Shown: positions 12,671 to 64,000, counted from the first letter of the stretch. The stretch is DNA of 64,000 nucleotides from Blasia pusilla (GCA_050084515.1 CM114271.1:18228001-18292000), one strand, 5' to 3'. The notes: generated from the sequence alone by a model not told the origin. Translations and numbers: made by a program.

Positions 12671-12719
12671 TTCCAAACATTGACGGTACAATTGATCCAA
12701 GCTTAGCAGTAGTTCTTGC

Positions 12720-18593: not shown

Positions 18594-19994
18594 ACGGAAG
18601 TCTTTGGTTGTATTTGTTATATTCATGTTCATTCTAAAAATATGTTTAAAATTAGATCCCAAATGTGAAACATGTATCTTCATTGGTTATGATGATGGAA
18701 TTAAGGGATATAAGTACTACATTCCATCCTCTAGGCATCTTATTATTAGCAACGATGTTATTTTTTATAAGCTGAAATCATGGTATGCTCCATCTGAGCC
18801 TATTCCACCTCTAAATTCAGCTTTTGAGGGGGAGAATATGACTATAAACCAATAAACATTGCCTAAAACTTTCCCAAGTACTAGTGTAGGATTAGGATAG
18901 GTCATAGATTCTTCAGTTAAATATGTCAATCTATAGTCAGGAATAGTACATGTTCAATCTATTGATATTAGCCATAGCTCAAGTCAGATGTCAGAGGCAT
19001 CCACCTCCAAACAACAACTTCATAGATCAAGTTGAGTTACATCCTATTAATAAATTCAAAAATGAAGGATTTCGTGCAACACATCATGCATATATGATGA
19101 CTATCCTTAAAAAATAGGAACCGAGTTGTTTTGAAGACGTTGCAAGCAATGTCAAATGGACTAAAGCTATGGAGCAGGAGCTTAATGCATTTAGATATCA
19201 ACAGACATGAGAGTTTGTTGATATATCTTCCGGTAAGGAAGTTATTGGTTGCAAATGGGTTTATAAAATCAATTGTAATTAAGACGGTACAGTGAACAAA
19301 TACAAAGCCAGATTGGTAGCTAAGAGCTATTCACAACAATATGGGGATTATGAGGAGATATTTAGCCTTGTTGCAAAGATTACGATTACGAGAACAATTG
19401 TTGCAATTGCATTACGTAAGTATTGGAGACTACATCACATGGACGTCAAGAATGCCTTATTGAATAAAGATCTATATGAGGAGATATATGTGACTCAACC
19501 ATCTCAATATGAGTATCCAGAGTTTTTATTCCGTGTATACAAGTTAAAGAAAGCTCTATACGGGCTCAAGCAAGCTCCAAGAGTTTGGTATTGTAAGATT
19601 ATATACGTCCTACAAGAGTTGGACTTTAGGGTACGTGATTATGACTCCTCGCTATATATCTTGAGAGGACAAGGTCATATGGTTATTATTTTATTGTATG
19701 TTGGCGACGTCTTGATCACTCGGAGTACGGAGTACTTAGGATATAGTATAACAAGTCAAGCTAAAGTTAAGGCATAATTTGATATGAAGGACTTACGAGA
19801 ACTCAAGTATTTCCTTGGTGTTGAGTTAATCAAGGTTTGAGAGAGCATGTAGTTATTATAACAATAATATGTTTTTTACATGCTTTCAAAATAGGGTATG
19901 AAAACTAGTAATCCAATCTTTATATCGTTGGAACAGAGTGTGAAGCTAAGAGTGGATGAAGGAGAGTTGCTAGAAAATTATAATATGTACAATC

Positions 19995-21005
<1,011 letters not shown>

Positions 21006-21394
21006 AGGGATATGGTTGGAAGTGTGATCTATCTGATTATAACCAAGCCAAACTTCAATTATGCAATTGGCCTAATAAGCCAATTTATGCAAGCACCTTA
21101 AAAATCTCACCATAATGCTATAAGGATGATTATGCAGTATATGAAATTTTTGTTCAATTTGAACCTTCTTTGAGTTTACAATTACAGGGATTCATAGATA
21201 TTGATTGGGCAAGAAGCGTGTGTAATAGACATTCCATATTTGGTTATTCATTTACCTTGGGAAGCGAAGTTATTAGTTCGGCTTCAAACAAAGGTTTAAT
21301 ACAGAGGAGCAGCCAACGCAACGTGAGAGGCGGTCTGGCTTTATCAATTACTTGTTGAGATTCGTATTCGTAAATTAAGACCTATTGTAATTTT

Positions 21395-26696: not shown

Positions 26697-29600
26697 TGTC
26701 GTGAGCATAGATGTCGCTACACAACATACATTGCTATAACCGAACATACACACAAACACGTACGAGACAAGAAGTATCGAAATATCTCCAATTAAATCAA
26801 GTGGATCCAATCTCTCTCAACACCATAGCTCTCAAAATGTGTGCACTCTTACATGTCTCTCTCAATGTCAAACCAAACCCACTCTCCTAATGAGAGGCTT
26901 GGGTTATATTCATAAGGTAAGGGACCCTAATTTCGCCGCCTCGTGCCAAGAGGTTCAACAAAGAGAGAATGAGCTCTCAAGCTCTCTCTCCTTGAGGTAT
27001 ACCCCTTTCCCTTTCCCAAGCTATCTCCTTGGTAACCTATGCTTGCATATCACCTCCTTGGCTCTTGACCTGCTATAGGGGGTTAAAGGAAAATTCCCAA
27101 AGTGGGAAGTCAACTATACCAAATAGGGAAACTTACCCAAAATAATAAGTTTTAATATATGGCCCCCAAATGAGCCGAAACGAAGGGGAAAGATGCTCTC
27201 GTAGGTTACCCGTGGCCTCAGCAGGTCATCCTTGACCTCTTGAGGTTGTCCTCCAGTATCTCCGAAGGCGCTCTACTAGATCTTGCCGATCTATCCTAAA
27301 AGTCATGACAGTTGTCGGACGCATACACATCGCTACACAACATACATCGCTGTCACCAAACATACACACAAACACGCATGATCCCATGCTAACTCATGGC
27401 ATCCAAAAAAAAAGATAAGAAGTACCAAAATATCTCCAATCGCCCCCCTAGTTGGGGGTTAGGTCCCTCTAACTCTAGATAGTCACCTATCCCTACCTAC
27501 CATGATATACATCTCTCGGACGCTAAGAGCAAAAAGGCCGAGTGCTCATGTGGCCACATCGTTTGTCACCTTCTTGTCATCCATGTCACAGACACAAGTC
27601 AGAACCTAGAACTACCTACCATATATACATCGCGGACACATCCATCGTCCCTCAAGAATCCTAGTGAGAGGTGTCGTCAAACATGCCATATGCCACCCTT
27701 GCAAACACCTATCACAGGCTACCATACTGGCTGCACCATGGGCAGAACCACAACTTATATCACAAGCTTGCAGGAACTACGGCTAAGCTCGAATCAACTC
27801 TATCGTCAATGTTCGGAAGATGACATGACGCATGGTTACGCACATGGTCCTTCCAAACCATACCTTCGCGTCCCTCCAATAAGAGAACACCAGATGGCAA
27901 AACCTCACGCACTCTCAAGATGGTGCGTCATGCAGTCACATCCAATATTGTGGGTACCGTCTGCTCCAAGTAGACATAGTCTCCTTGATGAAACCTCCCG
28001 ATAGTAGGTGGATAACCACCTCCCCGAATAGTCGCATACCTCCACGTATCCCGATGCTGCGCAATCGCCAAGTTCTCAAACACCATGGGCATCACTGTCC
28101 GAAACAACTCAACCCTGTGCGAACATGCTTGCATCCATACATCACGGTCATCAAGGTTCAACACCTCACCAACATCTCGACGAATGGCCGCAGGGAAATC
28201 TGGCTCTCGGCCATAAAGCAACAAGTATGGTGAGAAAGACGCTAAGGATGTATGCCTGCTGAATATGTATCCCATCGCCAACCACGGCAAGTGGAGGTCC
28301 CAATCTCCTAGGTGACCTCTCTGCAAGCTATACTTGTCCAATCCTCTCTTCACCGTCTGCAAAACCCTCCCCGCTAGTCCATCCGCCTTAGGTTGATCTC
28401 GCAAAGTGGTGTGGTGGTCAATTAGTGCCAGATCACACAAGGCCTGAAACTCCCTGCGAAACTCTATACCTTGGTCTCTCAATATCTCAGCTGGTGCACG
28501 TAATGACTCAACACTCAATCTAGGAAGGCAAACGCTACTCCCTCACTTGCTTTATTAGGAAATGCAACCAACTCTATCCACTTTGAGAAGTGCTTGACCA
28601 TCACCAACACATAACGATTATGGCACTCCGTCAAAGGCAAAGGTCTTACAAAATCCAAACTCCATCTAAAACCTAAATCTCTGATCAGAAGTGGATGCAA
28701 TTGTGGAGTCGGAGCATTGAACGATGCTCGGACTCGGTCACACACCATGCACCTGGCAACAAACTGCTGAACGTCAGTCTGCATGCCTTGCCACCAATAC
28801 TATATCTGGAGCAAGTTGTACGTCCGCTTCACTCCAAAATGACCCGACTCTTTGTGGGCATGACGCACCAAACGTGCTCTCTACGAAGGATGAGGCACTA
28901 CACGCACTCTACCATCCTCCCAAACTCACAACATATGTGTCTCCTCCCACCGGAACCGTCTGGCTCGCCGTAGGATCCGATCCCGCTCTCTAACACCCAC
29001 TCTGCTCACGACGCTGCCACTACGCAGGTACTCCAAGACCACTCCATCGTCATGAATATCTCGGCCACCTGTCATCTCCTCACCGGACTTTGGATCTAAG
29101 GACTCTCCATCATACCTCGCCATCGAAGTCTCAACAATTTGGCTCTCCATAGCCAACAAGTCCAAATAGGCTGATGGGTGCCATCTTGGCACCAACTCCT
29201 CATCATTCTCACCATGCCAACGAGCTCTAGTCGCATCTTGCTGACTCAGGCATGGATTATGGCTCAAACCATCTGCATCCTAGTTGAGCGTCCAAGGTTT
29301 ATGCACCACCTGGAAGTCATACTCCTCCAACAAAAGAGCCCACCTCGCAAGCTTCCATGTAAGCTTGTCGGACACCATCAACCACTTAAGTGGCTGATGA
29401 TCAGTAATGATAATAAAGGGGTTTTTGAATAAATCACATCTGAAATGTGCAAAAATCCACACCGCAGCCAAGCACTCACCTTCATACGAGCTATACTTTG
29501 CCTCTGCAGCGTTGTTCGAGCGACTAGCGTAAGCCACCACGAACTCTCTACCATCATTGTCATGCTAGGTGAGCACGGCTCCAAGCCCCAACATGCTCCA

Positions 29601-33030: not shown

Positions 33031-34026
33031 TGTCGTGCGACTACTCTCCTTGAACGTCAATCTCTAGTGTTGCGGAAGCGTACGTTCAATAGGACATGCT
33101 CTCATCATCGACGTGCACCCAAACGCACTCACATTAGTCTGGCTTTGGGTCAAGCGGCCTTCCAACCCACCGAGTTCTCAACTCAACATTTCATCCAGCT
33201 TAACCTTCCTTACTTCCTAGGTTCCCAACACGGCAAATCCTTCAAGACTTGGAACAGACTTTCTGGTTAGTCCAGGAACCTAAAACGGCACCTGCGCGCC
33301 TAGCGGTTCTAACTGTTCAACGGATCTCATGCGTGTTCCTAACCGGGACCCAAGTAATTAAGTCGCGGATTGGAATCCAAGAGGGATCTCTAAAAATCAC
33401 CTCAATAGACTTGGCTCAGATTTTCAAGCCCAACTCCAAACTCCTGATCCGTTCCATGCCCTTGAGCCGCCCCATGGCGCCCAAAGTGGGGTTCGAGTCC
33501 CAAGCACCCTTGGAGACCTTCCCCTTACTATTACTTCTGGGGTTCTCCAATAACCCCTCACCTTTGGAAAATGATGGTCGGGCCCTTGATTGTGGCCCTA
33601 AACCCGACTCTACTTACAATCATTTTCGGGTCGTTTCTCAACTGCTACTTGTGTGTTAACGGAGATCTTTAGTGAGTATGAACCCGAATTTCCACAAGCT
33701 TTCCAACGCATCCTTAATTGTCCTAAACGTATCTCGGCGCTAGAAGTTATGGCCATAAATACAGTCGAAAACTCTCAAACGCTAGTAGCATCCCAAATCC
33801 GGATTCCTTCCTTTGGCAACGTGGACCAAACGCGGATCAAATATTGATCCGCGTTTGGTTCAGGTTTCTTAATCGTGACCACAACATATGAAATGCGAAG
33901 CCTCGCTTGCGTCTCGTCTCTTGTCTCTTCTCCAAGACCACTCCAACGCGCAAACCATCTTAGCGTGAACCTGCTAGTGTTCTGATGTTTCGCTTTAGCA
34001 CTCGTTTGGTCATGAAGGTCACGACA
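33031..34026 (-). mobile_element. Solo LTR, same family as 17591-18593
   Basis: TG...CA, collinear with 17591-18593, with 5-bp flanks attca/tttca. Confidence 0.85.
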
Positions 34027-41725: not shown

Positions 41726-42070
41726 GCTACATCTTAGTTAGTCGATATGTAGAATTCAACCGCGTCGACGACATAGAGGGTCAGTGGGTAGTTTGGGTGT
41801 AACTTTGTTCAGAGATGTTGGATGAGGTTGACAACTTGTCCATTGTGTGAGGAATGTCATTTTTGGCGATTTTCCTACTTTGATATTTCTAGCCAAGTAA
41901 CCCGTTGATGAGTCAAAGATCAATGGGTAACTTGTGCTCCATCATATGTTAATGTTTTGAGGCTATTTTTCGGGAAAGAGAATTTTTGGCTCTTCCAAAG
42001 GCTAAAAGAGAGGGACAGATGGCTTTCCCAAGCCATCTTTCCATCATGTTGGTAAGGGGTTACTAGCATA
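41726..42070 (+). repeat. Terminal-repeat-like sequence of a third subfamily, copy 1
   Basis: Similar to 44802-45350 (cttagttag..gggtagtttgggtgtaactt..ccgttga..ctttcccaagccatctttcc) and directly precedes a DNMT fragment. Confidence 0.6.
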
Positions 42071-44800
42071 CACTAAGCGCCCATATTTTGTTGTTGGGGG
42101 CACATGCCTTGGATAGAGGTGGCACCATTCATTTGGTGATTGTAGGATGGCCATGTCAAGATCATTCATCGGCTGGCCAAGGGTTTAGAATGCAGGATCC
42201 GAGGCCAGGATGTTTTAGGAGATGCTACAAATATTCGATACTTGTAGGAGAGTCACATATGTTCTCCGGCGTATATTCTGTAGAACGTGCCACTATTGGG
42301 AGACACTCGTGCACGGGTGATGACGAGTGTGCATCAAGTGAGGTCATGGCTAGGACTTTCCATATTGTTGGATGCCGCGAGAGTTGGATCATACACACAC
42401 TATTTACGGTTATGGTGGACGAACCTTCTATCACTGGAGGTATTGAGCCGAGCTTATGATGGAGTTCAAAGAATACCACAATTGATTGTGGATGCGATCC
42501 TGGGTCTATGGCGTCGGTCTCCTGTGATGACGCTCGATGAACTAGATGATAGATCATCGTAGGCGGTAGCCAATAGGGTGGGGGAGTTGAGGTCAGCCTT
42601 ACCTACGTTGTTGAGCTTCACGATATCCCATGCCTTTTGAAAAGGAGGGCGAGGCATGACTTGGGATGCAAAGATCCGAGCATTAGATGAGTTTACTGAT
42701 AATAAGCGCGAACCCGCCATGGGGTTTACTATTGGTATGTGATACTATGACACTGCCAGATGTGATAGAGGCATCACGATGGACCTCAATTTTCTCACAT
42801 GGATAGTCACTCTAGGTATGGTTGAGCACAGAGGGATGTGAGTATCATCAATTGCATCACGTCCATAATGTCACATCTTCTAGGATAGATCGACAAGATC
42901 TACTAGCGCGCCTTTGGGGATACTATAGGTCAACCTCAAGAGGTTGAGGATGACCTACCAAGGCCACGGGTAACCTGAGAGAGTAGGTTTTCCCTTTGTT
43001 TTGGCTCATTTGGAGCCATATTGAGAAACTTACTATAACAAGTAAGTTACCATTTGAGTATATTTGACTTTCTATTTTGGGAAGTTATCCTTGACCTCTT
43101 ACAGCAGGTCAACAGCCAAGGAGGTGACCTACGAGCATAAGTTACCGTGGAGAGAGATCTTGGGAGAGGGAAGGGAGTATATCTCAAGGAGAGAGAGCTT
43201 GAGCACTCATTCTTTCTTTGTTGAACTTCTTGGCATGAGGCGACAGAGCTATGGTCCTCTTTGACTTGTGTGTATAACCTAAGCCTCTCTTGAGGAGAGT
43301 TGGTTTTGGTTTGATATGAGAGAGATAGAGTTGTGCACCTTGTAAGACATTATGAGAGAGTGTTACTTGATTTAATTCGAGATATTTTGTTACTTATCGT
43401 CTGATGTTTGGATAACATGAGTTAGCATGGGATCGAGAGTGTTTGTGTGTGTATTTGGTGAAAGCGATATATGTTGTGTAACGATGTCTATGCGCACAAC
43501 AATGAGTTAGCGTATTGCTCACATGGTATGTAAAGACATTGGCTAGGGGCGAGGGGAGGAGAGATAGGCATCCATGGACTTCCTGGGACGTCATTTGAGC
43601 AGAGAGTATGGAGGTGGCCAAAGTGGCACATGTTCATTTTTCAAGTGTGGAGCATGATGTGGGATCTAGATCAGAGTGGGATAACTGTAGCAAAGATGGC
43701 TAAGGTTGCTACATAGTAACCCTAGCTACATCGTTCTTTGGTTGCCATATAGCAACCCTAGCTAGACGGGGGTTGCGTCCTCTTCGAGTGAGGTCACGAT
43801 GGAGACTTGGGAGCTTGTGATATGTCTTGAGTTGACAAGAGAAGAGAGACCGTAGATACATAGATTTTTGAGAGGGCATGTGGGATGTTTTTCCTTCAAT
43901 ATAAGAGACTTGGGTACTTTTAAGGATCCCGAGATACGGATAGATTTCACTAATGATATGCCAATCCTTTGTCGATCCTAGAGGTATTTTGACATGGAGC
44001 GAGCCTTGACTCCGAGTAAGAGTCAGGACTTGTGGGAGGCAGTATTGGTGGAGTTATTGCATGAGGAGTATGCATATACCAAAGTCATGCTGGCGAAGAA
44101 GGATATGTATGGCAACTGGATAGATGGGCAGATGTGTAGAGATCACAATCCTATTAACCGGCAGACAAGATTAGATTGGTATGCCATGTCTACTCATGAG
44201 GAGATCTTTTCTTTGGTAGGGCATTCAAAGCAAAGATCTCCTCATGAGTAGACATGGCATACTTTAGCATGGAGATCTTAAGTACTGCCCTCTTTGCTTT
44301 GGTAGGCATCTCCGTGCTGGCTATCATCAACTGCCTATCAGGATGGAGGACAAGAAGAAGACAAATTTTTGGGGGATAGATTGGTTCGCAAGAGATTTTT
44401 TGTAATAGTGGTGGTTCTTACCATTTGGGTTCAAGAACACCCTTATGGAGTTCCAGAGAGTCATGCATAGGATTTTGGCTCGCTTGGATTTTGTACAATG
44501 TTACATAGATGATATTGTTATCTTCAATTCCATGATTGAGGAGCATGAGCGACACCTGGAGGAGGGGTTTTGATCATTGCAATTATATCCAGGCAAGTGC
44601 AAGTTTTTTGAAGAGCAAATTGAGTACTTGGGACAAACCATAAACCATAAGGTGGGTTAGATGTTCAACACATAAAGGTGAAGGCTATTATACAGATTCC
44701 ATGCCCTACAAATGTGAGTCTAGTTCGAGCGTTTCTGGGACACGTAAACATCTGTTGCCAATATATCAAGGGGTTTAGTGCGATTGTGAAGTCTTTGACC
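42070..44800 (+). mobile_element. Element E: degenerate DNMT-RT fragment of the same group
   Basis: LVIVGWPCQDHS (42130-42170), NVPLLGD, LLDAARVGS..LRLWWTNL, and RT motifs LPFG and CYIDD (~44500). Confidence 0.85.
42869..43501 (+). mobile_element. Solo A-B unit of family 1 (633 bp) nested in element E
   Basis: TGTCA...CAACA, with A directly followed by B. Flanks ataa/atga. Confidence 0.85.
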
Positions 44801-44801
44801 T

Positions 44802-48358
<3,557 letters not shown>

Positions 48359-49111
48359 TGTCGTGCGAATCCACATCGTCATACAACATACATCGTTGAC
48401 ATACCATACTTACATACATACAACATAGACGAGAGCATCCACAAACATAAGTGTACCACAACTGAAATCCGTGGAAGACCTACTGTCATAACACACGTAT
48501 AGAATCACATACAATCGAGCCAAACCCACTCCACGATGGGAGAATCCAAGTCGAAGCTTGCGGGAACTACCATAACCAAGAGCTCTACTCACTACCAAGG
48601 CTAACTCCCAACACAACAAGCTCAACTCAAAGAACTAACTGTTCTTTGAGTGCACTCCACACTATATCCTCCAACCTAACAGCGGGCCCTACTGGAAAAG
48701 TCACCCTCAACTGAGTAACCCCCAACCCTGTGTATGGAACCGCATCTCTACCTAGACACTACGGCCCTACATAAGGTATGGCCTCTACTAGCACACTATA
48801 CTCTACGACATAATCCGTATGGTCATGACAGTTGTCATGCGAATCCACATCGTCATAAAACATACATCGCTGATATACCATACTCACATACATACATAAC
48901 ATATACGAGAGTATCCACAAACACAAGTGTACCACAACTCGCCCCCCTAACTAGCGGTTAGGTCCCTCTAACTCCTAGGTAGCCCTATACATCTACAACA
49001 TGCTATACACCTTCTTGGGTGCCCGAATCAAAAGGTCGGGTGCTAGGTTGCCCCATCGTTAGTCGCACATATGTAATCCATATCATGCAAAGATCAAGTC
49101 ATCTACCTCTC

Positions 49112-50257
49112 CTAAGTACATCGAGGACAAACCCACCTTCCAGTAGGAACAACATCCATACATGGAGTCAAACACATAATGTGCCAACCCCTAGAACACC
49201 GATCACACACCAACATACAGGCTGTGTTACCAGCAGACCCACACAACATGCACCTCAAGCTAGCATGTATCATGGCTAAGCTTGGATCAACAGTACCATC
49301 CACATTTGGAAGATGACATTGCTCACAATTATGCACATGGTCCTTCCAAAAAACTCCATCACGACCCTCAAACATGAGAACTCCAGAAGCTAACACCTCG
49401 CGCACTCGTAAAATAGTGCGGTCTGCCGTCACATCCAACGTTGTCGGTGCAATCTGCTGCAAATAGACATAGTCCCCCACATGGAACATACAAATCGATG
49501 GTCGATAACCTCCACCCTGAATGGTTGCATACCGCAACGTATCCTTATTTTGAGCAATGGCAAGACTCTCAAAGGTTGTTGGCATAACTCTCCGAAAGAG
49601 CTCTGTCCGCTGAGAACACACTCTCATCCACATCTCTGGGTCATCAAGGTTCACCACCTCACTAGACTCCCGACGAATTGCTACTGGCAAGTCTGGATCT
49701 CGGCCGTTTAACAGAAAATAAGGTGAGAAGGAAGCCAAGGATGCTTGGCGACTGAACCTATATCCCACGGCTAACCATGACAACTGAATATCCCAGTCTC
49801 CAAGATGCTCCTTCTGTAGGCCATACTTGCGCAATGCCCTCTTCACCGTCTGAACCACACGCTCAGCCAAACCATCCGCCTCTGTATGATCTCGAGACGT
49901 GGTCCGATGATCAATCAACGCCTTGTCACACAAGACCTGAAACTCACCCTGAAACTTTGGACCCTGGTCGGTCAGCACTTCAGCTGGTGCACCAAAATGA
50001 CTAAGCACTCTATCAAGAAATGCATACGCTATTCCCTCACTTGCCTTGTGAAGTAATGCCACCAAATCAATCCACTTGGATAAGTGCTCCACCATCACCA
50101 ACACATATCGATGATGTCGTACAGTCAACGGTAACGGTCCCGCAAAGTCCACACTCCAACGGTAATCCAACCCCATAATAAGCAAGATGTGTAATTGTGG
50201 TATAGAGGCATTGAATGATGCCCTCACCTGGTCACAAACCATACAACGTGACACCAA
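49112..50257 (-). CDS. Integrase core fused in frame to a C-terminal PHD finger (381 aa, element C)
   Basis: WSVDFAGP, LTDQG and GLAERVV (DDE), then CMLCGS...MLVCDRCSRGWHIMCL...WVCPRC in one open frame. Confidence 0.9.
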   Translation of the reverse strand: MVSRCMVCDQVRASFNASIPQLHILLIMGLDYRWSVDFAGPLPLTVRHHRYVLVMVEHLSKWIDLVALLHKASEGIAYAFLDRVLSHFGAPAEVLTDQGPKFQGEFQVLCDKALIDHRTTSRDHTEADGLAERVVQTVKRALRKYGLQKEHLGDWDIQLSWLAVGYRFSRQASLASFSPYFLLNGRDPDLPVAIRRESSEVVNLDDPEMWMRVCSQRTELFRRVMPTTFESLAIAQNKDTLRYATIQGGGYRPSICMFHVGDYVYLQQIAPTTLDVTADRTILRVREVLASGVLMFEGRDGVFWKDHVHNCEQCHLPNVDGTVDPSLAMIHASLRCMLCGSAGNTACMLVCDRCSRGWHIMCLTPCMDVVPTGRWVCPRCT

Positions 50258-52269
50258 TTGCTACACCTGAGTATGCATGCCACGCCACCAATACTGACCA
50301 AGGAGTAAGCTATATGTACGCTTTATCCCAAAATATCCCAACTCCTCATGGGCATGTCGCACAATGCGCTCTCTTTGAGCCAAATGCGGCACTACTCGTA
50401 CTCTACCATCCTCCCACACACGGAGAATATGTGTTCCCTCCAATCGATACCTCTTAGCACGTTGAAGAACACGGTCTCGCTCCTTGGCACTCACTATGCC
50501 TGGCACCCTACTGGTCCGTAGGAACTCCAACACCAACGCATCATCATGAATATCACGCTGATCCGTACCACCATCTCCAACCTAGGATCTGAAGGCTCGC
50601 CATCTACCCTCTGACTAGAGTAAGATGGCCAGCCATCTTACTCTAGTAAGATGTCATGTGGTCCTCCATACTAGAGTCCACCCCTAACCAACATAAAAAG
50701 GTAGATGCATGCCAACTTGGCACCATCTCCTCATCAACCTCGCCATGCCATCTAGCCCCAGTTGCATCCTCTTGGCTAGTACATGGGTTCCTACTCAACC
50801 CATCAGCATCAAGGTTGGCAACTCGAGGTCTATGTACCACTTGGAAGTCGTACTCCTGTAAGATAAGAGCCCACCGTGCAAGCTTCCCTGTAAGCTTGTC
50901 AGACTCCATCAACCACTTGAGCGGCTGGTGATCAGTAACAAGGGTAAAGTGTGTGCCAAACAAGTAACACACAACCCACACTGCTGCCAAGCACTCTCCC
51001 TCATATGAACTATAGCGCGAAATTGGTTCAAAGGCTTTGCCATAGCACTAAATCCCTTCACATACCTCCGATAGTAGTTCACCAATCCCATGAATTCCTG
51101 AACTCTACTCACATCTACCGGACGAGGAATAAGTGCAATAGCCTCCACCTTTGCTTGCCGAACTCCCAAACCACCTGGATAGATCACATGACCCAAGTAC
51201 TCAACATCCTCATGGAAGAACTTACACTTTTCCGGATGCAAACGTAGACCATGAGCTTTCAACCGCTCAAACACAATCTGCAAATGTATCTGATGCTCCT
51301 CCACCGTGTTACTGAACACCAAGATATCATCCATGTAACACCGAACAAAATCCAACCCTGCTAGGATCCTGTCCATCACCCTCTGAAACTCGGCATGTGC
51401 ATTCTTCAACCCAAAGGGTAAGAATTTCCACTAGTACAAACAATCCTTGCCATGAGAGTTGACACCCCAAAATGTTGTCTTGGCCTTGTCACTCTCTCGA
51501 ATCGGCAATCGATGGTATCTGCCGAAGATCCAAAATCTGAAAATCTTTGCTGTCCCACCACATCAAAGATCTCTCAGGTGTAGGCATGGCATACCTATCG
51601 CCTTGGTCTGCCGATTGATAGGACGGTAATCTCCACACATCCGCCTATCCGTGTAGTTGCCATGCATATCCTTTTTTAGCATGATGGCAAAGTGGGGTGA
51701 TGCATACTCTCCATGCGAAAATTCCACTAATCCAGCCTCCAAAAGGTCCAACGTCCTACTCTGAATCAGGTCCCTCTCCATATCACTATGTTGGTAGGGA
51801 CGATGAAAGATTGGCATATCACTAGCCAAATCAATCCGTATACCGGTCCAACCAAAGCACCCAACTCCTTCATGCTAAAGGCAAAACAACTCCTATAAGT
51901 ACGTAGGAACTGTGTCAAGCGTCATTTCTCACCTCCCGTAAGCTTGGGCCCAAGTAATGGCTCCCAAGTCTCCTCCACTGGCACACTAGAGGGAGAGGAC
52001 GACGCCATTGGTTGCTACGCAACCCCCTCACAAGATGGTACACCCTTAGCTACACCATCATTTGAGCAAATAACTCCTCCACCGGCATGAGCAACCGACT
52101 CCACATGCCCAGCCATTACATCCCATTTACTCCAAGGATGCAAAATACTACTCTCCTCGCCCCCAGCTGATGCCTCTACCATCCCGGTAGCCATCGAGCT
52201 CATCACAAGGGGTGAAAGACCCACAAACATAGTCCGAAGTTGACGCTGCTCGACCATACCAATACTCAA

Positions 52270-53230
52270 AATCCAGGTCAAACAATTCAGGTCCATGGCC
52301 TGACCCAACACATGACATCGTGAAGCCTCATAAATGGAAGCAACCGCTGTCACACCAATAGCAAATCCCATCGCACGCTCTCTCTCATCAGCGTTAGGCT
52401 CCACCAAGTGTCGCACATGAGAATCCTTACAAGCCCGGACCACCTTCCCTGTAGGCATGTGACGAGGGAAAACTCACAAATGTGGGTAGTGCCATCCTAG
52501 GCTGGCCCACATGGTTTACCACTGCCATGGGTGACCGATCAATAACCCTCACCACTTAAGAGAGTCGCCCAGTATCCAAGATACTAGCCATTGTAAGGCA
52601 AGGATCCCAGCTGCATTGCATCATATGCTCGACGTAGAACCTCCCTAGGCAACAAGTTTGTCCACCACAAGCGTGGACGATGTGCACGCAAGCCAACTCA
52701 CGCTGAATCTAACAACACCGCTGGTCCAATCCAAGACCGCATCTCATGAACACTCGCCATCATCCGGGTTCGAGTGTCACCCAACAATGGAACATTCTCC
52801 AAAATGTGAACTGGAGCACGTGCCTGATGAACCTGAAGATATTGTAATACCCGTAATATCTCCCAAAATAATCGAGACCTAGGGTCGTGTAATCCTCACC
52901 ACGACCAGCACGTGTATGACCCTAACATGGCCATCCAGCAATCACCAAATCCACAAGACCAACCCTCTCAAGGTCTTGCGCCCCCAACAATGCAATGTGT
53001 GACGGCAAAGCACGCTGGTATCCACGAATAGCTGATGGTGGCAACAACTCAAGATATCTCCGAATCAATTGACCAATATGTTGGGATGAGACTCTCTGGG
53101 CCGTCTCATCTCGCTCCACATACACGTATCTCCACACAGGAATACAGCTTGCAACACTGCAGCCAAACCAGTGCTCATCCCACCAAAGAGATCTAACACA
53201 CAAATGCCCTCCGGCGGATACTCCTATACA
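52270..53230 (-). pseudogene. Element C cytosine methyltransferase domain
   Basis: LDLFGG (~53180-53195), YVYVERDE, LVIAGWPC*, ENV (~52795), ERERAMGF, RCHVLGQAMDL. Confidence 0.9.
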
Positions 53231-55052
53231 ATGCGTGTAGTATCCAAAGGGGATAACCCAACTAGACCAGAAGTAGGAGTCCACCGTGGGGCCTCCTCTT
53301 CCTCGTGAGGTATAACAGCCTCACACCAAGCCTCCTGCACTAGGCGTCGACCTCTGCCGTAGTGCACTTTGCTCGAACTCCAAAGTGGCACATCCAACGA
53401 CGAGGATACCACTGCTACAAAACTAGGGACTCCTCTACCTCCTCATGCACAGGAGAATCCATAGCATAAAGGTTACCCTCCAAAAAGTCTCCTGGCCAAG
53501 TGACTACTCCAGAAAAACCAGCCACAGATGCTAACACCGTTACGGAAGACCATCCTGGTCGAACCCGACAAATAAATCTCACAGGAACCTGGCTCACACG
53601 TCCATCCCCGAATTTCCAACAAGGTCTATAAGACGTTGTCTAAGTCCAGTAGTCCATCTGAAAACCCATCCGATACAATACTGCTCCTCCATACGGCTTG
53701 GCTGATGTGACCACTACAGGTACTGCCAACCAGGAGCTATCAGTTGCATGATTTGGTCTCAAGTGTACAGAAAACATCTCCCGTGTCATGAATTGAGACC
53801 TATCATTGGCTCCTCCAAGTGATGTTTGAATCTGAAATGGGCAAGGCTCAAGCTCTGACCTCCGAATACCCAAACCAATACATGTCGCCTTTCCCAACAT
53901 CAAAGGTTGGGCACCAAAGTCTAACAAGACTCTATCTGGTCTATACACCTGTCCTGTAGGACTCACCAATCGGAATATCCCACTCCGGTTGTCCAACATA
54001 CATACACCAGGTGTAAGCCTCTCATGATCAATAGCTGGTCGGGCTGGCAATGCATCCATCTTCGCCGTTGCTGCCTACCAAGTAGCACTGGTACTCAATG
54101 CTACACTTGACATAGAGGGTCGCTCCACCGCAACACCCTCATCCACCTCAACACGTGTAGTAGTAACATCCCCACGTTCACACAACGTGGCTGCTAGCTG
54201 AAATACAGGAGCTAAGTCAACTCCTAAAGCCATCAGCTCCGTGGCTGAAAATAATGGGGATCCCAACACTGAAGTTGCCATCCGCAATATTGCACTGGAT
54301 GCTACATCCCTGTCTACTACACGCGATGTACATGCCTCAGTCCCGACTGTAGGCTCAATAGGCTGCGTAGAAACCATGGATGGAGTCCTAAGCACCTCAG
54401 ACAACAAGAATGACTGGGGAAGCCTAGCCTGCCTCCCAACCTCACCCCTCTGTGGTTCCAACTCCACAATAGCACCACGTGGCTCTAACGCTCGAGTGGC
54501 TCCTCTCGTAACTGCAGCCAATGCTTCAACCTGTGCTACACTCGCCATATAAGAGAGATCATCCCCTCCATAAGAGGTGGAAGCCCCTGCTCTGGAACCT
54601 GCTCTATGCTGGATACCAGCCATAATAGCCAACTTATGCTCCAACTGCTCAATTCAGGCAACCATAGCTGACTCTGTTGTAGTGGTAGGGGTAGCCACCA
54701 TAGGCTCTCCAACCACTGGTCTAGCTCTACCACCCCTACTACCTCTACCATCTTGGCCTCTCGGAGCTACTCCACCACGGCCGCAACCTAATCTCAACTT
54801 TGGATGAAGATCAAAGCAACGCTCTCGAGGATGACCTAGTCTCCCGCAATGATAACACTAAGTTGGGGCCGACTGAGGCCCATCCTCCAAAGTCCGTCCC
54901 CCATCCTCTTGGGGACAAAACCTCCTAACATGATAACCTCCACATGTCTAACATGCCTTTCCTTGCTGCGGGGCAGCAAATGAAGGCAATGGTCTTTGCA
55001 CAAGTGTCCCTCTAGGACCTGACTGAGGTCATATGTACCCCCTACGACTCCC

Positions 55053-55084
<32 letters not shown>

Positions 55085-56327
55085 GAGATTGTGAGGTGGA
55101 TTGCTGAACACGAGAAGTAGTAGTTGTATCCCTACTGAATGCGGATGTCACCACTCTCTCCTCCACCATGTTAAGCTCAATCTTCTCAGATAGAGCAAAC
55201 ACATGGGTCAATGTGGGTGAATCATCACTCATAAGAGTAGCATCACATACCCTGCGGCGCAACTCTTTGTCCAAGATCCCATACCAAAACAGGACTGCCT
55301 GAGCCGCAGTTACACCATGGGTAACTGAAATCAAGCGTCATATTTCAAGCGTCACATAGGAATGTATGCCTCACGAAGACACTCACCAGTCTTTCGCTCA
55401 AATTCCTGAAGACTCCTCAACTTCTCTGTCTTCACTCCCTGATAGTTCTTCTTCAACCTCTCGGAGAACTCTACAACCGGGCTGAACAATGGTGGGGCAC
55501 TAGTATCTCCACTAGTACCCCCACTGGTACCTCCATGGGTACCTCCAATGGTACCTCCACTCCGGCTCGTACTCGTACCACTCAACGTCGGGCTGACTGG
55601 CATAGTAGAAGCACTACTACCAATACCACCATGGGTGATAGACACATAGCCTAGAGACCAATATTGTCTCCACGCCTCAATCTCAACAATATGGTCCTTC
55701 CTAAACTCATGGTAATCGTCCATGGGTGGTCCCTCCAAGTGCTCAAACAACCCCTTCCAAGCCAAGAAGGGTGTAAACAACGTGGCCTTCCGCAACATCT
55801 GCATATCACACCACGTATCAAACTCCTGAATGAAGTCCTCCAACTCAATGGTGCCCACTGCACCTAAGTATAGTCGTGGGCCCTTCATGGCCCCATATAT
55901 CCCATCCATGTCCCAAATCAATGGAGTTGCAGCACTCGATAACAACATAGAAGACTCGGTGTTTAGAACCCCCTTGTCCTCCTCTTCATCAACCGTCAAA
56001 AGTGGAAAAGGTAGTCGATACCTCAATCCACTCCATGTAAAACCACCACTATCTGCACCACGGTCCCCAACTAGACCACCAGACAGCTCTGTGATGACCA
56101 ACGCCGATGCCGCACCACCACCAAATGGTGGCGGTGCGGCAATCACCACCACTAAGTAACTAAGTGACATCGATGTCGCTGTACTATTCTAGCTCTACTA
56201 GCTATGGGTGTAGGCAAGCTAACCTGTCATCACCACAAGAAGCCTCCCACGGTCTACTTGTCATCAATCCAGCCTCACTACCGGTAGCACACATGAGTAA
56301 AACTATTGTGGAAATCGGCGTCAACTT

Positions 56328-59300
56328 TGTCGTGCGAATCCACATCATCATACAACATACATCGCTGACATACCATACTCACATACATACATAACATAGA
56401 CGAGAGTATCCACAAACACAAGTGTACCACAACTCGCCCCCCTAACTGGCAGTTAGGTCCCTCTAACTCCCAGGTAGCCCTATACATCTACAACATGCTA
56501 TACACCTTCTTGGGTGCCCGAATCAGAAGGTCGGGTGCTAGGTTGCCCCATCGTTAGTCGCACATCTGTAATCCATATCATGCAAAGATCAAGTCATCTA
56601 CCTCTCCTAAGTACATCGAGGACAAACCCACCTTCCAGTAGGAACAACATCCAAACGTGGAGTCAAACACATCATGTGCCAACCCCTAGAACACCGATCA
56701 CACACCAACATACAGGCTGCGTTGCAGAGACCCACACAACATGCACCTCAAGCTAGCATGTATCATGGCTAAGCTTGGATCAACAGTACCATCCACATTT
56801 GGAAGATGACATGGCGCACAATTACGCGCATGGTCCTTCCAAACAACTCCATCACGACCCTCCAACATGAGAACTCCAGAAGCTAACACCTCGCGCACTC
56901 ATAAAATTGTGCGGAGTGCCGTCACATCCAACGTTGTCGGGCACTCTGCTGCAAATAGACATAGTCCCCACATAGAACCTACAAATCGATGGTTGATAAC
57001 CTCCACTCGAATGGTTGCATACCGCAACGTATCCTGTGTTGAGCAATGGCAAGATTCTCAAAGGTTGTTGGCATAACTCTCCGAAAAGAGCTCGCTCGTT
57101 GAGAACACACCTCATCCACATTCTCGGGTCATCAAGGTTCACCACCTCACTAGACTCCCGACTAATTGCTTCTGGCAAGTCTGGATCTCGGCCGTATAAC
57201 AGAAAATAAGGTGAGAAGGAAGCCAAGGATGCTTGGCGACTGAACCTATACCCCATGGCTAACCATGGCAACTCAATATCCTAGTCTCCAAGATGCCCCT
57301 TCTGTAGGCCATACTTGCGCAATGCCCTCTTCACCGTCTGAACCACACGCTCAGCCAAACCATCCGCCTCTGGATGATCTCGAGACGTGGTCCGATGATC
57401 AATCAACGCCTTGTCACACAAGACCTGAAACTCACCCTGAAACTTTGGACCCTAGTCGGTCAGCACTTCAGCTGGTGCACCAAAATGACTAAGCACTCTA
57501 TCCAGAAACGCATACGCCGTTCCCTCACTCGCCTTGTCCGGTAATGCCACCAACTCAATCCACTTGGAGAAGTGCTCCACCATCACCAACACATATCGAT
57601 GATGTAAATGCATACCAACAGTAACGGTCCCGCAAAGTCCACACTCCAACGGTAACCCAACCCCATAATAGGCAAGGGGTGTAATTGTGGTGTAGGGGCA
57701 TTAAATGATGCCCTCACCCGGTCACAAACCATACAACGTGACACCAAATCGCTGCACACTGAGTATGCATGCCACGCCACCAATATCGCCAAGGAGTAAG
57801 CTATACGACGCTTTATCCCAAAATGTCCCAACTCCTCATGGGCATGTCGCACAATGCGCTCTCTCGAGCCAAATGTGGCACTACTCGTACTCTACCATCC
57901 TCCCACACACGGAGAATATGTGTTCCCCAATCGATACCTCTTAGCACGTTGAAGAACACGGTCTCGCTCCTTGGCACTCACTATGCCCGGCACCCCTCTT
58001 TGGTCCGTAGGAACTCCAACACCAACGCATCATCATGAATATCACGCTGATCCATACCACCATCTCCAACCTTAGGATCTGAAGGCTCGCCATCTACCCC
58101 TCGACTAGAGTAAGATATCATGTGGTCCTCCATACTAGAGTCCACCCCTAACCAACATAAAAAGACGGATGCATGCCAACCTGGCACCATCTCCTCATCA
58201 ACCTCGCCATGCCATCTAGCCCGGATTGCATCCTCTTGGCTAGTACATGGGTTCCTACTCAACCCATCAAAGCATCAAGGTTGGCAACTCGAGGTCTATG
58301 TACCACTTGGAAGTCATACTCCTGTAAGATAAGAGCCCACCGTGCAAGCTTCCCTGTAAGCTTGTCTGACTCCATCAACCACTTGAGCGGTTGGTGATCA
58401 GTAACAAGGGTAAACGGGTGCCAAACAAGTAACACCTAAAGTGTGCCCATGACCCACACTCTTGCCAAGCACTCTCCCTCATATGAACTATAGCGCGACT
58501 CCATTGCATTATTCGAACGACTTGCATAGGCCACCACAAACTCCATGTGCTCATCATCATGTTGTGTCAACACCGCTCCAAGTCCCAACCTACTCCAATC
58601 GTGTGTAATCTGGAAATGGGCGCCCCGATAGGTCTCCTCAAGATAGGCTCCGCCACCAACGGGCCTTAAGCTCCACAAAAGCTCTCTCGATCATCTCCCA
58701 GTGCCACTCTTGATCTGATTTCAGCAATTGGTTCAAATGCTTTGCCATAGCACTAAATCCCTTCACATACCTCCGATAGTAGTTCGCCAATCCCATGAAT
58801 GCTCAAACTCTACTCACATCTACCGGACGCGGAATAAGTGCAATAGCCTCCACCTTTGCTTGCTGAACTCCCAAACCACCTGGATAGATCACATGACCCA
58901 AGTACTCAACATCCTCATGGAAGAACTTACACTTTCCTAGATGCAAACGTAGACCATGAGCTTTCAACCGCTCAAACACCATCTGCAAATATATCGATGC
59001 TCCTCCACCGTGTTATCGAACACCAAGATATCATCAATGTAACACCGAACAAAATCCAACCCGCTAGGATCCGTCCATCACTCTTTGAAACTCGGGAGGT
59101 GCATTCTTCAACCCAAAGGGTAAGAATTTCCAATGGTACAAACAATCCTTGCCATGAGAGTTGACACCCCAAAATGTTGTATTGGCCTTGTCACTCTCCG
59201 AATCGGCAATTGATGGTATCTCGCCGAAGATCCAAAAATCTGAAAATCTTTGCCTGTCCCACCACATCAAAGATCTCTCAGGTGTAGGCATGGCATACCT

Positions 59301-62300
59301 ATCGCCCCTGGTTTGCCGATTGATAGGACGATAATCTCCACACATCCGCCTATCCGTGTAGTTGCCATGCATATCCTTTTTAGCGAGCATGACAGTGGGC
59401 GATGCATACTCTCCATGCGAAAATTCCACTAATCCGCCTCCAAAAGGTCCAACGTCCTACTCGAATCAAGTCCCTCTCCATATCACTATATCGGTAGGGA
59501 CGACGGAAGATTGGCGTATCACTAGCCAAATCAATCCGTATACCAGGTCCAACCAGAGAACCCAACTCCTTCATGCTAAAGGCAAAACAACTCCTATAAG
59601 CACGTAGGAGGCGTGTCAGCGTCGTTTCTCACCTCCCGTAAGCTTGGGCCCAAGTAATGGCTCCCAAGTCTCCTCCTTTGGCACACTAGAGGGAGAGAAC
59701 GATGCCATTGGCGCACACGCATAACCCCCTCACAAGATGGTACACCCTTAGCTACACCATCATTTGAGCAAATAACTCCTCCACCAAAGCATGAGCAACC
59801 AACTCCACATGCCCACCATTACATCCCATTTACTCCAAGGATGCAAAATACTACTCTCCTCGCCCCCAACCGATGCCTCTACCGCCCCGGAGCCATCGAG
59901 CTCATTACAAGGGGTGGAAGACCCTGACATAGTCCGAAGTCGATTTGCTCGGCCATACCAAGACTCAAAATCCAAGTCAAACAATTCAGGTCCATGGCCT
60001 TTGACCCAACACATGACGTCGTGAAGCCTCGTAAATAGAAGCAAATTTGTCACACCGAGAGCAAATCCCATCGCACGCTCTCTCTCATCAGCGTTAGGCT
60101 CCACCAAGTGTCGCACATGAGAATCCCATACAAGCCCCGGACCACCTTCCCTGTAGGCATGTGACGAGGGAAAACTCACAAATGTGGGTAGTGCCATCCT
60201 AGGCTGGCCCACACGGTTCACCACTGCCATGGGTGACCGATCAATAACCCTCACCACTTGAGAAAGTCGCCCAAAGATATCAAGATACTATCCACCGTAA
60301 GGCGAGGATCGGCCGCTGACCGCATCATATGCTCAACGAGAACCTCCCTAGGCAACAAGTTTGTCCATCACAAGCGTGGACGATGTGCACGCGAGCCAAC
60401 TCGCGCTGCATCCAACAACACCGCTGGTCCAATCCAAGACCGCACCTCATGAACACTCGCCATCATCCGGGTTCGAGTGTCACCCAACAATGGAACATTC
60501 TCCAGAATGTAAGCTAGAGCACGTGTCGATGAACTCTGAAGATGTCGTAACACCCGTAACATCTCCCAAAACAATCGAGACCTAGGGTCATGTAATCCCT
60601 CACCACGACCAGCACGTGTATGACCCTGACATGGCCATCCAACAATCACCAAATCCACAGGACCAACCCTCTCAAGGTCTTGCGGCCCCAACAATGCAAT
60701 GTGTGATGGTAAAGCACGCTGGTACCCACGAATAGATGATGGCGGCAACAACTCGGATATCTCCGCATCAATCGACCAATATGTCGGGATGAGACTCTGG
60801 GCCGTCTCATCTCGCTCCACATACACGTATCTCCGACAGAATACCGCCTGCAACATCGCCGCCAAACCAAGTGCTAATCCCACCAAAGAGATCTAACACA
60901 CAAATACCCTCCGCGGATATCGCCATACAATGGGTGTAGTATCCAAAGGGGATAACCTAACTGGACAGAAGTAGGAGTCCGCCGTGGGGCCTCCTCTTCC
61001 TCGTGAGGTATAATGACCTCACACCAAGCCTCTGCACTAGGCGTCGGCCTCCGCCATAGTGCACCGCTGAACTCCAAAGTGGCACATCCAACGATGAGGA
61101 TGCCACTGCTGCAAAAATAGGGACCTCCTCTACCTCCTCATGCGCAGGAGAATCCATAGCAGAAACATTACCCTCCAAAAAGTCTCCTGGCCAAGTGACT
61201 ACTCCACTAAAACCAGCCATAGATGCTAACACTGTTGGGGAAGACCCTCCTGGTCGAGCCCCAGTAATAAATCTCACAGGAACTTGGCTCATACGTCCAT
61301 CCCCGGACTGCCAACCAGGTCAGAAGACTGTCTCGACCCAAATAATCCATCGAAAACCCATCGGATACAATCGCTCCTCCAACTAGTACATCATACGACT
61401 CGGCTGATGTGACTACCGCAGATACTCCCAACCGGGACCTATCAGTCGCATGATTTGGTCTCAAGTGTACAGAAAACATCTCCCGTGTCATGAATTGAGA
61501 CCTATCATTGGCTCCTCCAAGTGATGTTTGAATCTGGAATGGGCAAGACTCAAGCTATGACCTCCGAATACCCAAACCAATACATGCCGCCTTTCCCAAC
61601 ATCAAGGTTGGGCACCGTGAGTCTAACAAGACTCTATCTGGTCTATACACTGTCTGTAGGACTCACCAATCGGAAGATCCCACCGGTTGTCCAACATACA
61701 TACACCAGGTGTAAGCCTCTCACGATCAATGGCTGGCCGGGCTGGTAATGCATCCATCTTCGCCGCGCTTGCCAAGTAGCATTGGTACTCAATGCTACTC
61801 TTGACATAGAGGGTCGCTCCACCGCAACACCCTCATCCACCTCAACACGTGTAGCAGTAACACCCCCACGTTCACACAACGTGGCTGCTAACTGAAATAC
61901 AGGAGCTAAGTCAACTCCTAAAGCCATCGCCCGTGGTGAAAACAATGGGGATCCCAACACTGAAGTTGCCATCCGCAATACTGCATTGGATGCTGCACCC
62001 GTGTCTACTACACGCGATGTAGATGCCTCAGTCCCCACTGTCGGCTCAATAGGCTGCGTAGGAACCATGGATGGAGTCCTAAGCACCTCAGACAACAAGA
62101 ATGACTGGGGAAGCCTAGCCTGCCTCCCAGCCTCACCCCTCTGTGGGTCCAACTCCACAGTAGCACCACGTGGCTCTGACGCTCGAGTGGCTCCTCTCAG
62201 AATCGCTGGTGATGCCTCAACTTTGTCTTTGCACTCGCCATATAAGAGAGATCATCCCTCCATAAGAGGTGGAAGCCCTCGCTCCCGAACCCGATCTATC

Positions 62301-64000
62301 TTTGGATATCGACCATAGTAGCCAACTTCTGCTCCAATCTGCTCAATCTTGGCGCCATAGTCGACTGTCGTAGTGGTAGGGGTAGCCACCGTAGGCTCTC
62401 CAACCACTGGTCCACCTCTACCACCCCTACCACCTCTACCACCTCGGCCTCTCGGAGCTACTCCACCACGGCCACGGCCTGATCTCAACTCTGGATGAAG
62501 ATCAAAGCAACGCTCTCGAGGATGACCTAGTCTCCCGCAATGATCACACTGAGTTGGGGCCGACCGAGGCCCATGCTCCAAAGTCCGTCTCCCATCCTCT
62601 TGGGGACAAAACTTCCTAACATGATCATCTCCACATGTCCAACATGATCGCCCTTGCTTGCTGGGGCAGCAAATGAAGGCAATGGTCTCTGCACAAATGT
62701 CCCTCTAGGACTTGATCGAGGTCGCGTGTACCCCCACGACTCCCATTGCTACTACCACCACCACTACTACGAGACTGTGAGGTGGGCGGTGAACACGAGA
62801 AGTAGTAGTTGTATCCCCATGAATGCGGATGTCACCACTCTCTCCTTCACCATGTTAAGCTCAATCTTCTCGGGATAGAGCAAACACATGGGTCAATGTG
62901 GGTGAATCATCACTCATAAGAGTAGCATCACGCACCCTATGGCGCAAATCTCTGTCCAAGATCCCATACCAAAATCGACTTCTGATCCTCGGTCACACCT
63001 GGGTAACTGAAATCAGCGTCGATACGCTGGCGTGTATGCCTCACTTAAGACTCTCACCACCTTTCGCTCAAAGTCCTGAAGATTCCTCAACTTCTCCGTC
63101 TTCACTCCTTGATAGTTCTTCTTCAACCTCTTGAAGAACTCGAACGGGCTAAACGATGGTGGGGCACTAGTACCTCCACTAGTACCCCCACTAGTACCTC
63201 CACTTTGGTACCCCCACTCCGGCTTGTACTCGTACCACTCAACGTCGGGCTGGCTGGCATAGTAGGAGCACTACTACCAATACCACCATGGGTGATAGAC
63301 ACATAGCCTGGAGACCAATATTGTCTCCATGCCTCAATCTCAGCAACATGGTCCTTCCTAAACTCATGGTAATCATCCATGGGTGGTCCTTCCAAATCTT
63401 TGAAACAACCCTTCCAAGCCAAGAAGGGTGTAAACAATGGCGTTCCGCAACATCTGCATATCACACCACGTATCAAACTTCTGCATGAAGTCCTCCAACT
63501 CAATGGTACCCACTGCACCCGAGTATCGTCGTGGGCCCTTCATGGCCCCATATCCACCGTCCATGTCCCAAATCAATGGAGTTGCAACACTCGATAACAA
63601 CGTAGAAGACTCGATGTTTGGAACACCCTCGTCCTCCTCTTCATCAACCGTCGGAAGTGGAAAAGGTAGCCGATACCTAAATCCACTCCGTGTGAAACCA
63701 CCACTGTCCGCACCACGGTCCCCAACCAGACCACCCGACAGCTCCGTGATGACCAACGCCGATGCCGCACCACCACCAAATTACCCAAATGACGTCGATG
63801 TCGCTCTACTATTGTAGCTCTACTAGCTATGGGTGTAGGCAATCTAACCTCTCATCACTACAAGAAGTCTCCCACAGTTTACTGGTCATCACTCCAGCCT
63901 CACTATCAATAGCACACAGGAGTAACACTACTCTGGAAATCAACGTCAACCCTAACAATGGGCGCGCAAGCAAGAAGCACGATGGAGGGGATCCAGACAC
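56328..64000 (-). mobile_element. Element D (family 2), same architecture, ends in repeat B only; 5' end is outside the window
   Basis: Collinear with C from PHD to gag. B at 56328-56434. Knuckle CDHCGRLGHPRERC and RGG box in 62252..62581. Many 1-bp frameshifts. Confidence 0.92.
59980..60910 (-). pseudogene. Element D cytosine methyltransferase domain (best preserved catalytic core)
   Basis: ORF 60368..60886 reads VDLVIVGWPCQGHTRAGRGEGLHDPRSRLF...YILENVP...GSRAHRPRL. ORF 59760..60257 carries ERERAMGF. Confidence 0.92.

Follow-up and report, generated by a model that had tools for sequence, protein, structure and literature searches.

Gypsy-type elements replicate, in the textbook scheme, through two identical LTRs, and the ends of an LTR are usually inverted repeats of each other. 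The split direct repeat is the terminal order of the DIRS-order families Ngaro, PAT-like and TOC1; DIRS-order elements code for a tyrosine recombinase and are not known to duplicate their target. Abutted element ends are the transposition substrate in circle junctions of the IS911/IS30 type, and partial tandem copies make the apparent terminal repeats, or pseudo-LTRs, of Penelope elements. The last two systems involve other enzyme classes or element orders and are used here as analogies only.

The closest described element is KnitGypsy-Dnmt3 of Klebsormidium nitens, a Gypsy element with a Dnmt3-type domain in pol (de Mendoza et al. 2018, PMC5890265). The passages of that paper on the element describe its repeats as 'the same as that of a DIRS retrotransposon', combined with Gypsy domains. 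The first-figure legend gives the DIRS arrangement as 'A-coding region-B-A-B', and in the same passages the layout is reported for many KnitGypsy-Dnmt3 copies and drawn without a 5' B. Literature searches found no further description of the layout beyond PMC5890265, and found the KnitGypsy name in that paper only. For retroviruses, two papers report that the integrases of a spumavirus and of HIV-1 cleave palindromic LTR-LTR junctions (PMC1905944, PMC1180852).

Here we describe two families of Ty3/gypsy-type elements in a window of 64 kb, the whole stretch of DNA analysed, from a liverwort-type genome. Like KnitGypsy-Dnmt3, these elements have the Gypsy domain set and a C-5 DNA methyltransferase inside pol, and both families show the 3' half, B-A-B, of its DIRS-like repeats; KnitGypsy-Dnmt3 differs in its algal host, and the present copies are old and broken. 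B-A-B was already known as the published layout of a related element, in the passages cited above; what is new is the second plant group and the nucleotide resolution. The termini, the spacer, the polypurine tract and the duplication length given below are not in the passages of PMC5890265 on KnitGypsy-Dnmt3.

The comparison with the other systems is mixed. As in the DIRS order, A1-internal-B1-A2-B2, the inner B-A joint equals the joint that the circularised ends would form. The elements differ from that order in having a DDE integrase and 4 extra nt at their insertion sites, and in that no tyrosine recombinase (PF00589) was found in any of 29 frames of at least 45 aa upstream of RT, nor in longer frames. 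The DIRS layout is represented by its 3' half in two of the four 3' ends, and by an A-only 5' end in one copy, the leader of which is unalignable. With canonical Ty3/gypsy elements the families share a polypurine tract, a pol that runs in the order RT-RNase H-integrase, and TG...CA termini that form short inverted repeats; the 4 extra nt at both solo sites suggest a short target duplication as well. Unlike canonical elements, they have a PHD finger in place of the chromodomain and a DNA methyltransferase in pol, their tract precedes a copy of the terminal unit's last 95-127 bp and not the unit's start, and two equal LTRs occur in no copy of the window, the 3' ends being B-AC-A-B or B and the sole 5' candidate A alone. 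The missing pair of LTRs counts for little because all copies in the window are old or truncated. The inner joint also resembles the retroviral 2-LTR circle junction, in which two integrase-recognised ends meet 2-4 nt apart and make up a short palindrome; the retroviral junction is extrachromosomal only, whereas the joint described here is permanent in the integrated element.

Module order at the 3' ends

On the minus strand, 48359-48939 forms the 3' end of a Ty3/gypsy-type element, family 1 copy 1, made up of a polypurine tract, a short repeat (B2), the dinucleotide AC, a module A and a terminal copy of the short repeat (B1). In sense order GAGGGACCTAAC and TTAGGGGGGCGAG are followed by B2, AC, A and B1, and then by flanking DNA (Table 1). 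Identity between B1 and B2 was 90.7% across 107 columns and, counting aligned bases only, 92.4%. The same order was found in copy b of family 2, the B1 of which (26697-26791) has a 32-nt deletion.

Table 1. Coordinates of repeat modules, internal regions and related features in the 64-kb window
Feature	Position	Strand	Remarks
B1, terminal short-repeat copy, family 1 copy 1	48359-48463	-	CACGACA end at 48359
A (367 bp), family 1 copy 1	48464-48830	-	sense start TGTCATGACC at 48830
AC spacer, B2 end to A start, family 1 copy 1	48831-48832	-	gt on + strand; centre of 7-bp inverted repeat 48824-48839
B2, polypurine-side copy, family 1 copy 1	48833-48939	-	CATGACA end
Polypurine tract TTAGGGGGGCGAG, family 1 copy 1	48938-48950	-	runs straight into B2; same tract at other 3' ends
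GAGGGACCTAAC motif, family 1 copy 1	48957-48968	-	just upstream of polypurine tract
GAGGGACCTAAC motif, other sites	56452-56463, 27458-27469	-	
GAGGGACCTAAC motif, other site	13022-13033	+	
Integrase frame	49112-50260	-	rve core and C-terminal PHD finger (Pfam), 382 aa
Internal region, family 1 copy 1	48940-56325	-	starts GTTGACGCCG at 56325
AA, B3 end to copy 1 internal-region start	56326-56327	-	
B3, B-only 3' end, family 1 copy 2	56328-56434	-	polypurine tract directly upstream
Internal region, family 1 copy 2	56435-63950	-	starts at same nucleotide as copy 1 (63950)
B-AC-A-B 3' end, family 2 copy b	26697-27439	-	family ~72% identical to family 1
B2, family 2 copy b	27313-27439	-	
AC, family 2 copy b	27311-27312	-	
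A, family 2 copy b	26792-27310	-	
B1, family 2 copy b	26697-26791	-	
B-only 3' end, family 2 copy a	13052-13178	+	polypurine tract CTAGGGGGAGGG directly upstream
A without B	4866-5381	+	likeness to A-B units ends at A/B boundary
Solo A-B unit c	42869-43501	+	no coding sequence; within pol region of copy c
Solo A-B unit d	19995-21005	+	no coding sequence; within copia reverse transcriptase
Copy c, third copy, 5'-truncated	42019-48358	+	

In both families B starts with TG and finishes with CA. A starts with TGTCAYG and B ends with CRYGACA or a close variant, so that the two are mutually inverted repeats; in family 1 and copy b the A module opens with TGTCATGAC, in the remaining three A copies with TGTCAC. 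The first 9 nt of A are the same in both families and are the inverted repeat of the B end, and past these 9 nt no similarity between the family-1 and family-2 A modules was detectable. Given these A-start and B-end sequences, the inner B-AC-A joint consists of two integrase-type ends abutted over 2 bp. The joint reads CATGACA-AC-TGTCATG in family 1 and CCGACA-AC-TGTCATG in family 2, and the same ends border independent insertions. The original prediction that 48824-48839 reads CATGACA-gt-TGTCATG, a 7-bp inverted repeat, was exactly right for the plus strand, and its view of the joint as a mimic of a circle junction was borne out in that both integrase-type termini stand head to tail, with the shared A start and the CRYGACA B end. 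The further claim that both families join B to A in this way held for GACA-AC-TGTCA, which was found in each, and did not hold for the length of the palindrome: the family-2 joint, GACAACTGTCA at 27306-27316, contains a perfect inverted repeat (GACA/TGTC) of 4 bp, not 7. The palindrome alone means little, because perfect 7-2-7 inverted repeats are commoner in the window (24 observed) than in block shuffles of it (mean 3.9, 100 shuffles). Judged from the alignments, the non-chance feature is the palindrome's position, at the same joint of the same modules in two families with unalignable A parts. None of five folds at the joints and the polypurine tract was better than shuffles.

A search of the window with nhmmer found eight B copies, plus one partial internal duplicate, and five A copies (four of family 2, one of family 1). 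Flanking DNA precedes A in three of the five A copies and B in none of the eight, B always standing after A or after the polypurine tract. Two of the four 3' ends are B-AC-A-B (48359-48939 and 26697-27439) and two are B-only. The predicted tally of two B-A-B ends, two B-only ends and two solo A-B units was recovered, and had missed a further form, the A without B at 4866-5381, which is probably the 5' end of family-2 copy a. It also took the B at 56328 for a free B-only end, which is not the case, since AA joins this B3 to the internal region of the next copy at 56325. A permuted form, A-B-A-int-B, which the original prediction had proposed to look for, was not found in the window, where none of the five A copies is preceded by an A-B unit (nhmmer); five A copies are too small a sample for its absence to be a refutation.

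A G-rich polypurine tract, overlooked in the prediction, directly abuts B at all four 3' ends, in both families. Some 6-10 nt upstream of the tract the 12-nt motif GAGGGACCTAAC is present without change at the same four ends, although the two families are about 72% identical; the motif may be a cis signal for plus-strand priming. GAGGGACCTAAC belongs to a small GTTAG...CTAAC inverted repeat, which folds no better than shuffles. At the other end, the start of the internal region reads GTTGACGCCGATTTCCA, and a tRNA-type primer-binding site (TGG...) is absent there. A tRNA scan found no tRNA gene in the 64-kb window for comparison with a primer, and an Rfam scan of the window was likewise empty. 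A hairpin across the B/int joint was not better than shuffles (z = -1.3).

Coding content and relatives

The internal region of family-1 copy 1 contains a leader, a gag-like frame, a DNA methylase remnant, RT, RNase H and integrase-PHD, and is 90-93% identical to that of copy 2. Of the two family-2 copies, a is a plus-strand copy that extends to 13178, and b a minus-strand copy running from 30874 down to 27440; these are 85% identical to each other, and either is about 72-74% identical to family 1. Matches to RVT_1, RT_RNaseH and rve occur in sequence at 51430-49112 (-) and 9978-12388 (+). RT and RNase H are thus upstream of integrase on the same strand, which is the Ty3/gypsy pol order. The DDE core motifs of the integrase are conserved in an alignment with five homologues. 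The nearest relatives of the integrase-PHD protein are hypothetical or unnamed liverwort proteins of about 80% identity (Calypogeia, Marchantia, Riccia), followed by moss proteins and then by Klebsormidium nitens proteins of 50-51% identity, which may not be those of KnitGypsy-Dnmt3 itself.

The C-5 DNA methyltransferase domain (PF00145) was found upstream of RT inside the gypsy-type pol, at 60371-60892 (-) in copy 2 (E = 2e-9) and, weakly, at 52701-52895 (-) in copy 1. A methyltransferase region upstream of RT is also present at 8643-9147 (+) and 42052-42469 (+), and so in all these gypsy-type copies. The 29 frames upstream of RT contained no other extra enzyme. Proteins of Marchantia, Calypogeia and Sphagnum are related to the methyltransferase frame, and some join PF00145 with RT and RNase H, a combination found in Marchantia proteins. 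From these protein matches, DNMT-bearing gypsy elements seem to be widespread in bryophytes, beyond Klebsormidium.

The window as a whole is a nest of decayed retrotransposons. An RVT_1 reverse transcriptase frame (14261-14770, +) follows the B end of copy a after about 1 kb. A 1-kb direct repeat (17591-18587 and 33031-34020, +; 85.6% identity) is unrelated to families 1 and 2, and its frames gave no Pfam match. Tandem-like repeats occupy 611-1448 (+); they have diverged to about 72-77% identity, and several of their periods overlap.

Insertion sites and the tandem array

The two solo units interrupt coding sequences, so that their sites could be compared with uninterrupted homologues. At unit c, three of the eight Marchantia polyproteins tried reached the joint, aligning to residue 1213, 1094 or 1185 at 42865, and these three resume two residues on (e.g. 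1215) at 43506. Without the insert, copy a has the same spacing as the Marchantia proteins. The site thus consists of a 633-nt unit and 4 extra nt (ATAA/ATGA). Unit d interrupts a Ty1/copia reverse transcriptase (RVT_2; 19283-19774 and 21006-21098, +), for which our search listed angiosperm and unnamed copia polyproteins as the best relatives; Pfam matched nothing in the short copia flanks. Copia homologues abut at 694/695 and 1247/1248, again leaving 4 extra nt (AATC/AGGG). Ten homologues were tried for unit d and five matched both flanks; of these, two abut, one more is consistent and two are uninformative. An earlier reading from family-1 colinearity, that solo A-B units lack a target duplication, was overturned by these closer outgroups, which reveal exactly 4 extra nt in either case. 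A decayed B end was also considered for the left flank of unit c (z = 4.2) and rejected: the best-aligned part is certainly pol coding sequence (GMVEHR), and the score was attributed to GT-rich composition. Unit d contains long (GA)n and (GT)n microsatellites near its A/B boundary (20240-20872) and a duplicated 73-nt piece of B (20557-20629), and a GT-type microsatellite resembling that of unit d lies inside copy c (45076-45324).

When the A at 4866 is paired with the B end at 13178, its 4-nt flanks are CATT/CACT. Together with those of units c and d, the flanks agree at 3/4, 3/4 and 1/4 positions, i.e., 7/12 against 3 expected (binomial estimate about 0.014). The A start and the B end act as insertion ends, inasmuch as both solo sites carry 4 extra nt and the flanks agree at this level. 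This is moderate evidence, which suggests that units running from A start to B end were inserted by a staggered 4-bp cut, as by integrase with a 4-bp duplication. There is likewise moderate evidence, from the CATT/CACT flanks, that 4866-13178 may be a single A-internal-B unit.

No copy in the window joins an intact 5' end to recognisable internal sequence. In copy a, about 1.2-1.6 kb of leader, from A (4866-5381; from 5386) to the first homology near 7004, cannot be aligned to family 1. Within this presumed leader, 5650-6600 (+) has a differing strand composition, a reversed or flat GC skew and short CCAT-rich repeats. The segment may have been inserted from elsewhere; neither insertion boundaries nor convincing repeats were detected. 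The DNA past the B-only end at 13178 was considered as a decayed A and rejected (z = 5.2 over 80 nt; 19.5 in a longer test, against a shuffle mean of 17.4 and maximum of 27.5).

The family-1 copies form a head-to-tail array, int2-B3-AA-int1-B2-AC-A-B1 (48359-63950), which was inserted in antisense orientation into copy c, within its integrase region. In copy 1 the internal region's first base follows B3 and AA; in copy 2 it follows 50 unmatched nt. These 50 nt (63951-64000) are unrelated to A or B; when tried as a continuation of the copy c integrase or as a variant A end, neither match was significant. B3 was also tried as a chimera of B2 and B1 and rejected: the shared sites interleave, and private changes are spread along all three family-1 B copies. 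Because the shared sites interleave, B3 simply looks nearest the ancestor, and because it is not chimeric it shows no positive trace of recombination. The B-AA-int joint had been missed in the original prediction, and the array fits neither recombination nor integrase cleavage simply. On one reading, the transcript would start at the internal region's first base and the B end would be the poly(A) site; the array would then consist of two units of RNA length, copied one after the other, and AA would be what is left of a tail. On another, the B-AA-int joint would be the end-to-end closure of a linear int...B DNA.

Origin of the forms

B-A-B is very probably an inherited, lineage-typical layout. 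Inheritance is argued by the module order and the GACA-AC-TGTCA joint, both common to families about 72% identical with unalignable A parts, and the resemblance of the elements to KnitGypsy-Dnmt3 argues for a layout typical of the lineage and not a local accident. Our best explanation as a whole, with the short forms attributed to recombination, is a proposal on which our confidence is evenly divided. It supposes that a lineage of Ty3/gypsy-type elements, with RT, RNase H, DDE integrase-PHD and a cytosine DNA methyltransferase, inherits B-AC-A-B as its 3' terminus. The full form would most likely be A-internal-B-AC-A-B, a DIRS-like split direct repeat as for KnitGypsy-Dnmt3. TGTCAYG at the start of A and CRYGACA at the end of B would be the ends that integrase joins to the target, of which it would duplicate 4 bp, and the inner B-AC-A joint, i.e., both ends abutted, would be carried through every round of copying. 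The shorter forms would be secondary products of recombination between repeated modules, B x B recombination giving A-internal-B (copy a) and A x A recombination giving solo A-B (units c and d), each with the original flanks kept. More weakly, the tandem array suggests that transcripts may begin with the internal region's first base and stop where one or the other B ends. The similarity of the A at 4866 to A-B units is lost exactly at the A/B boundary, as expected if an internal region follows. Against the explanation, the flanks of unit d match at one of four positions, and a B of just 95-127 bp is short for recombination; further, recombination of A-internal-B-A-B copies cannot explain the array, because the array has a B-to-internal joint. 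The want of a secure 5' end in the window and of a recombination trace in B3 also counts against it, as does the expectation that standard retroviral reverse transcription primed at the tract would make B-AC-A-B at either end, and not leave A by itself at the 5' end.

In the model of the original prediction, integrase cuts any joint of abutted ends in circular, concatemeric or junction-bearing cDNA, and each of the forms A-internal-B-AC-A-B, A-internal-B and A-B would be a direct product of insertion. The inner joint is made of ends that act as integrase ends elsewhere in the window, and all three predicted products are present, each bounded by an A start and a B end. The cutting of palindromic LTR-LTR junctions reported for spumavirus and HIV-1, in the papers cited above, provides a precedent, and the resemblance of the B-AA-int joint (56326-56327) to the closure of a linear int...B molecule makes junction-bearing intermediates conceivable. 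Recombination, however, predicts identical products and flanks, so that nothing favours cleavage; the two cannot be separated in 64 kb because they give the same three forms with the same flanks. The permuted A-B-A-internal-B is missing among the five A copies, and the family-2 joint has a perfect inverted repeat of 4 bp only. We therefore hold integrase cleavage of the joint to be a tentative alternative and somewhat unlikely. Less probable is a conventional LTR element with the whole of B-AC-A-B as its LTR, the 5' LTR having been trimmed or integrated from the inner TGTCA. Plus-strand synthesis would start from the polypurine tract and minus-strand synthesis from beside the B end, and the two B copies in one LTR would collapse to a single B, either through recombination or when a strand transfers to the inner B. 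The tract abutting B at every 3' end, the TG...CA ends of B in both families, and the 2-nt spacer over which B3 meets the start of the internal region, like that between an LTR and a primer-binding site, are all as expected of such an element, and the tandem int-B-int-B array would be explained as a shared, collapsed LTR. What makes this alternative improbable is that flanking DNA never precedes B and does precede A in most A copies, that B does not follow A at 4866, that copy 2 is without any LTR upstream of 63950, that the internal start has no tRNA-type primer-binding site (with no tRNA gene in the window for comparison), and that KnitGypsy-Dnmt3 is drawn without a 5' B in the published passages (PMC5890265).

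Two further readings would make the B-A-B order itself an accident. The arrays might be concatemers of separate cDNA units (int-B, int-B-AC-A-B and A-B, each copied from one RNA) that were end-joined or made by template switching, with AC and AA as filler and B-A-B as a by-product. Both family-1 internal regions do start alike, one after B3 and AA and the other after unrelated DNA, and a poly(A) tail could have left the AA past B3. Nevertheless, two diverged families have the identical AC spacer and the identical joint, which argues for inheritance and not for repeated accidents, and many copies of a relative from another genus are reported to have the layout (PMC5890265, in the passages on that element), which leaves concatemers highly improbable. 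It is barely credible that a solo A-B unit landed by chance beside a full element, at its B end: transposons are densely nested in the window and A-B units do insert alone, but the joint is the same to the nucleotide in two families, and the inner A-B has no 4-nt duplication.

For elements with gypsy enzymes and DIRS-like split repeats, the textbook LTR scheme cannot apply as written. The polypurine tract precedes a copy of the element's own 3' end, and the element contains an end-to-end joint that is permanent. The layout had hitherto been noted in a figure legend, for one alga, in the passages of PMC5890265 on KnitGypsy-Dnmt3. From the two diverged liverwort families, the termini are now known exactly, together with a spacer of 2 bp and a probable duplication of 4 bp. 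Elements of this kind will be mis-annotated by standard LTR finders, which will take B-A-B or A-B for an LTR or a solo LTR, and age estimates from LTR pairs are inapplicable to B-AC-A-B elements. By analogy with IS circles and DIRS elements it may be, though we think it rather unlikely, that a lineage in charophytes and bryophytes replicates via junction-bearing cDNA resolved by a DDE integrase, and not via two equal LTRs. If so, such cDNA, circular or concatemeric and resolved like IS circles or DIRS elements, would yield full, B-only and minimal A-B insertions, and the A-B unit would be the smallest mobile form.
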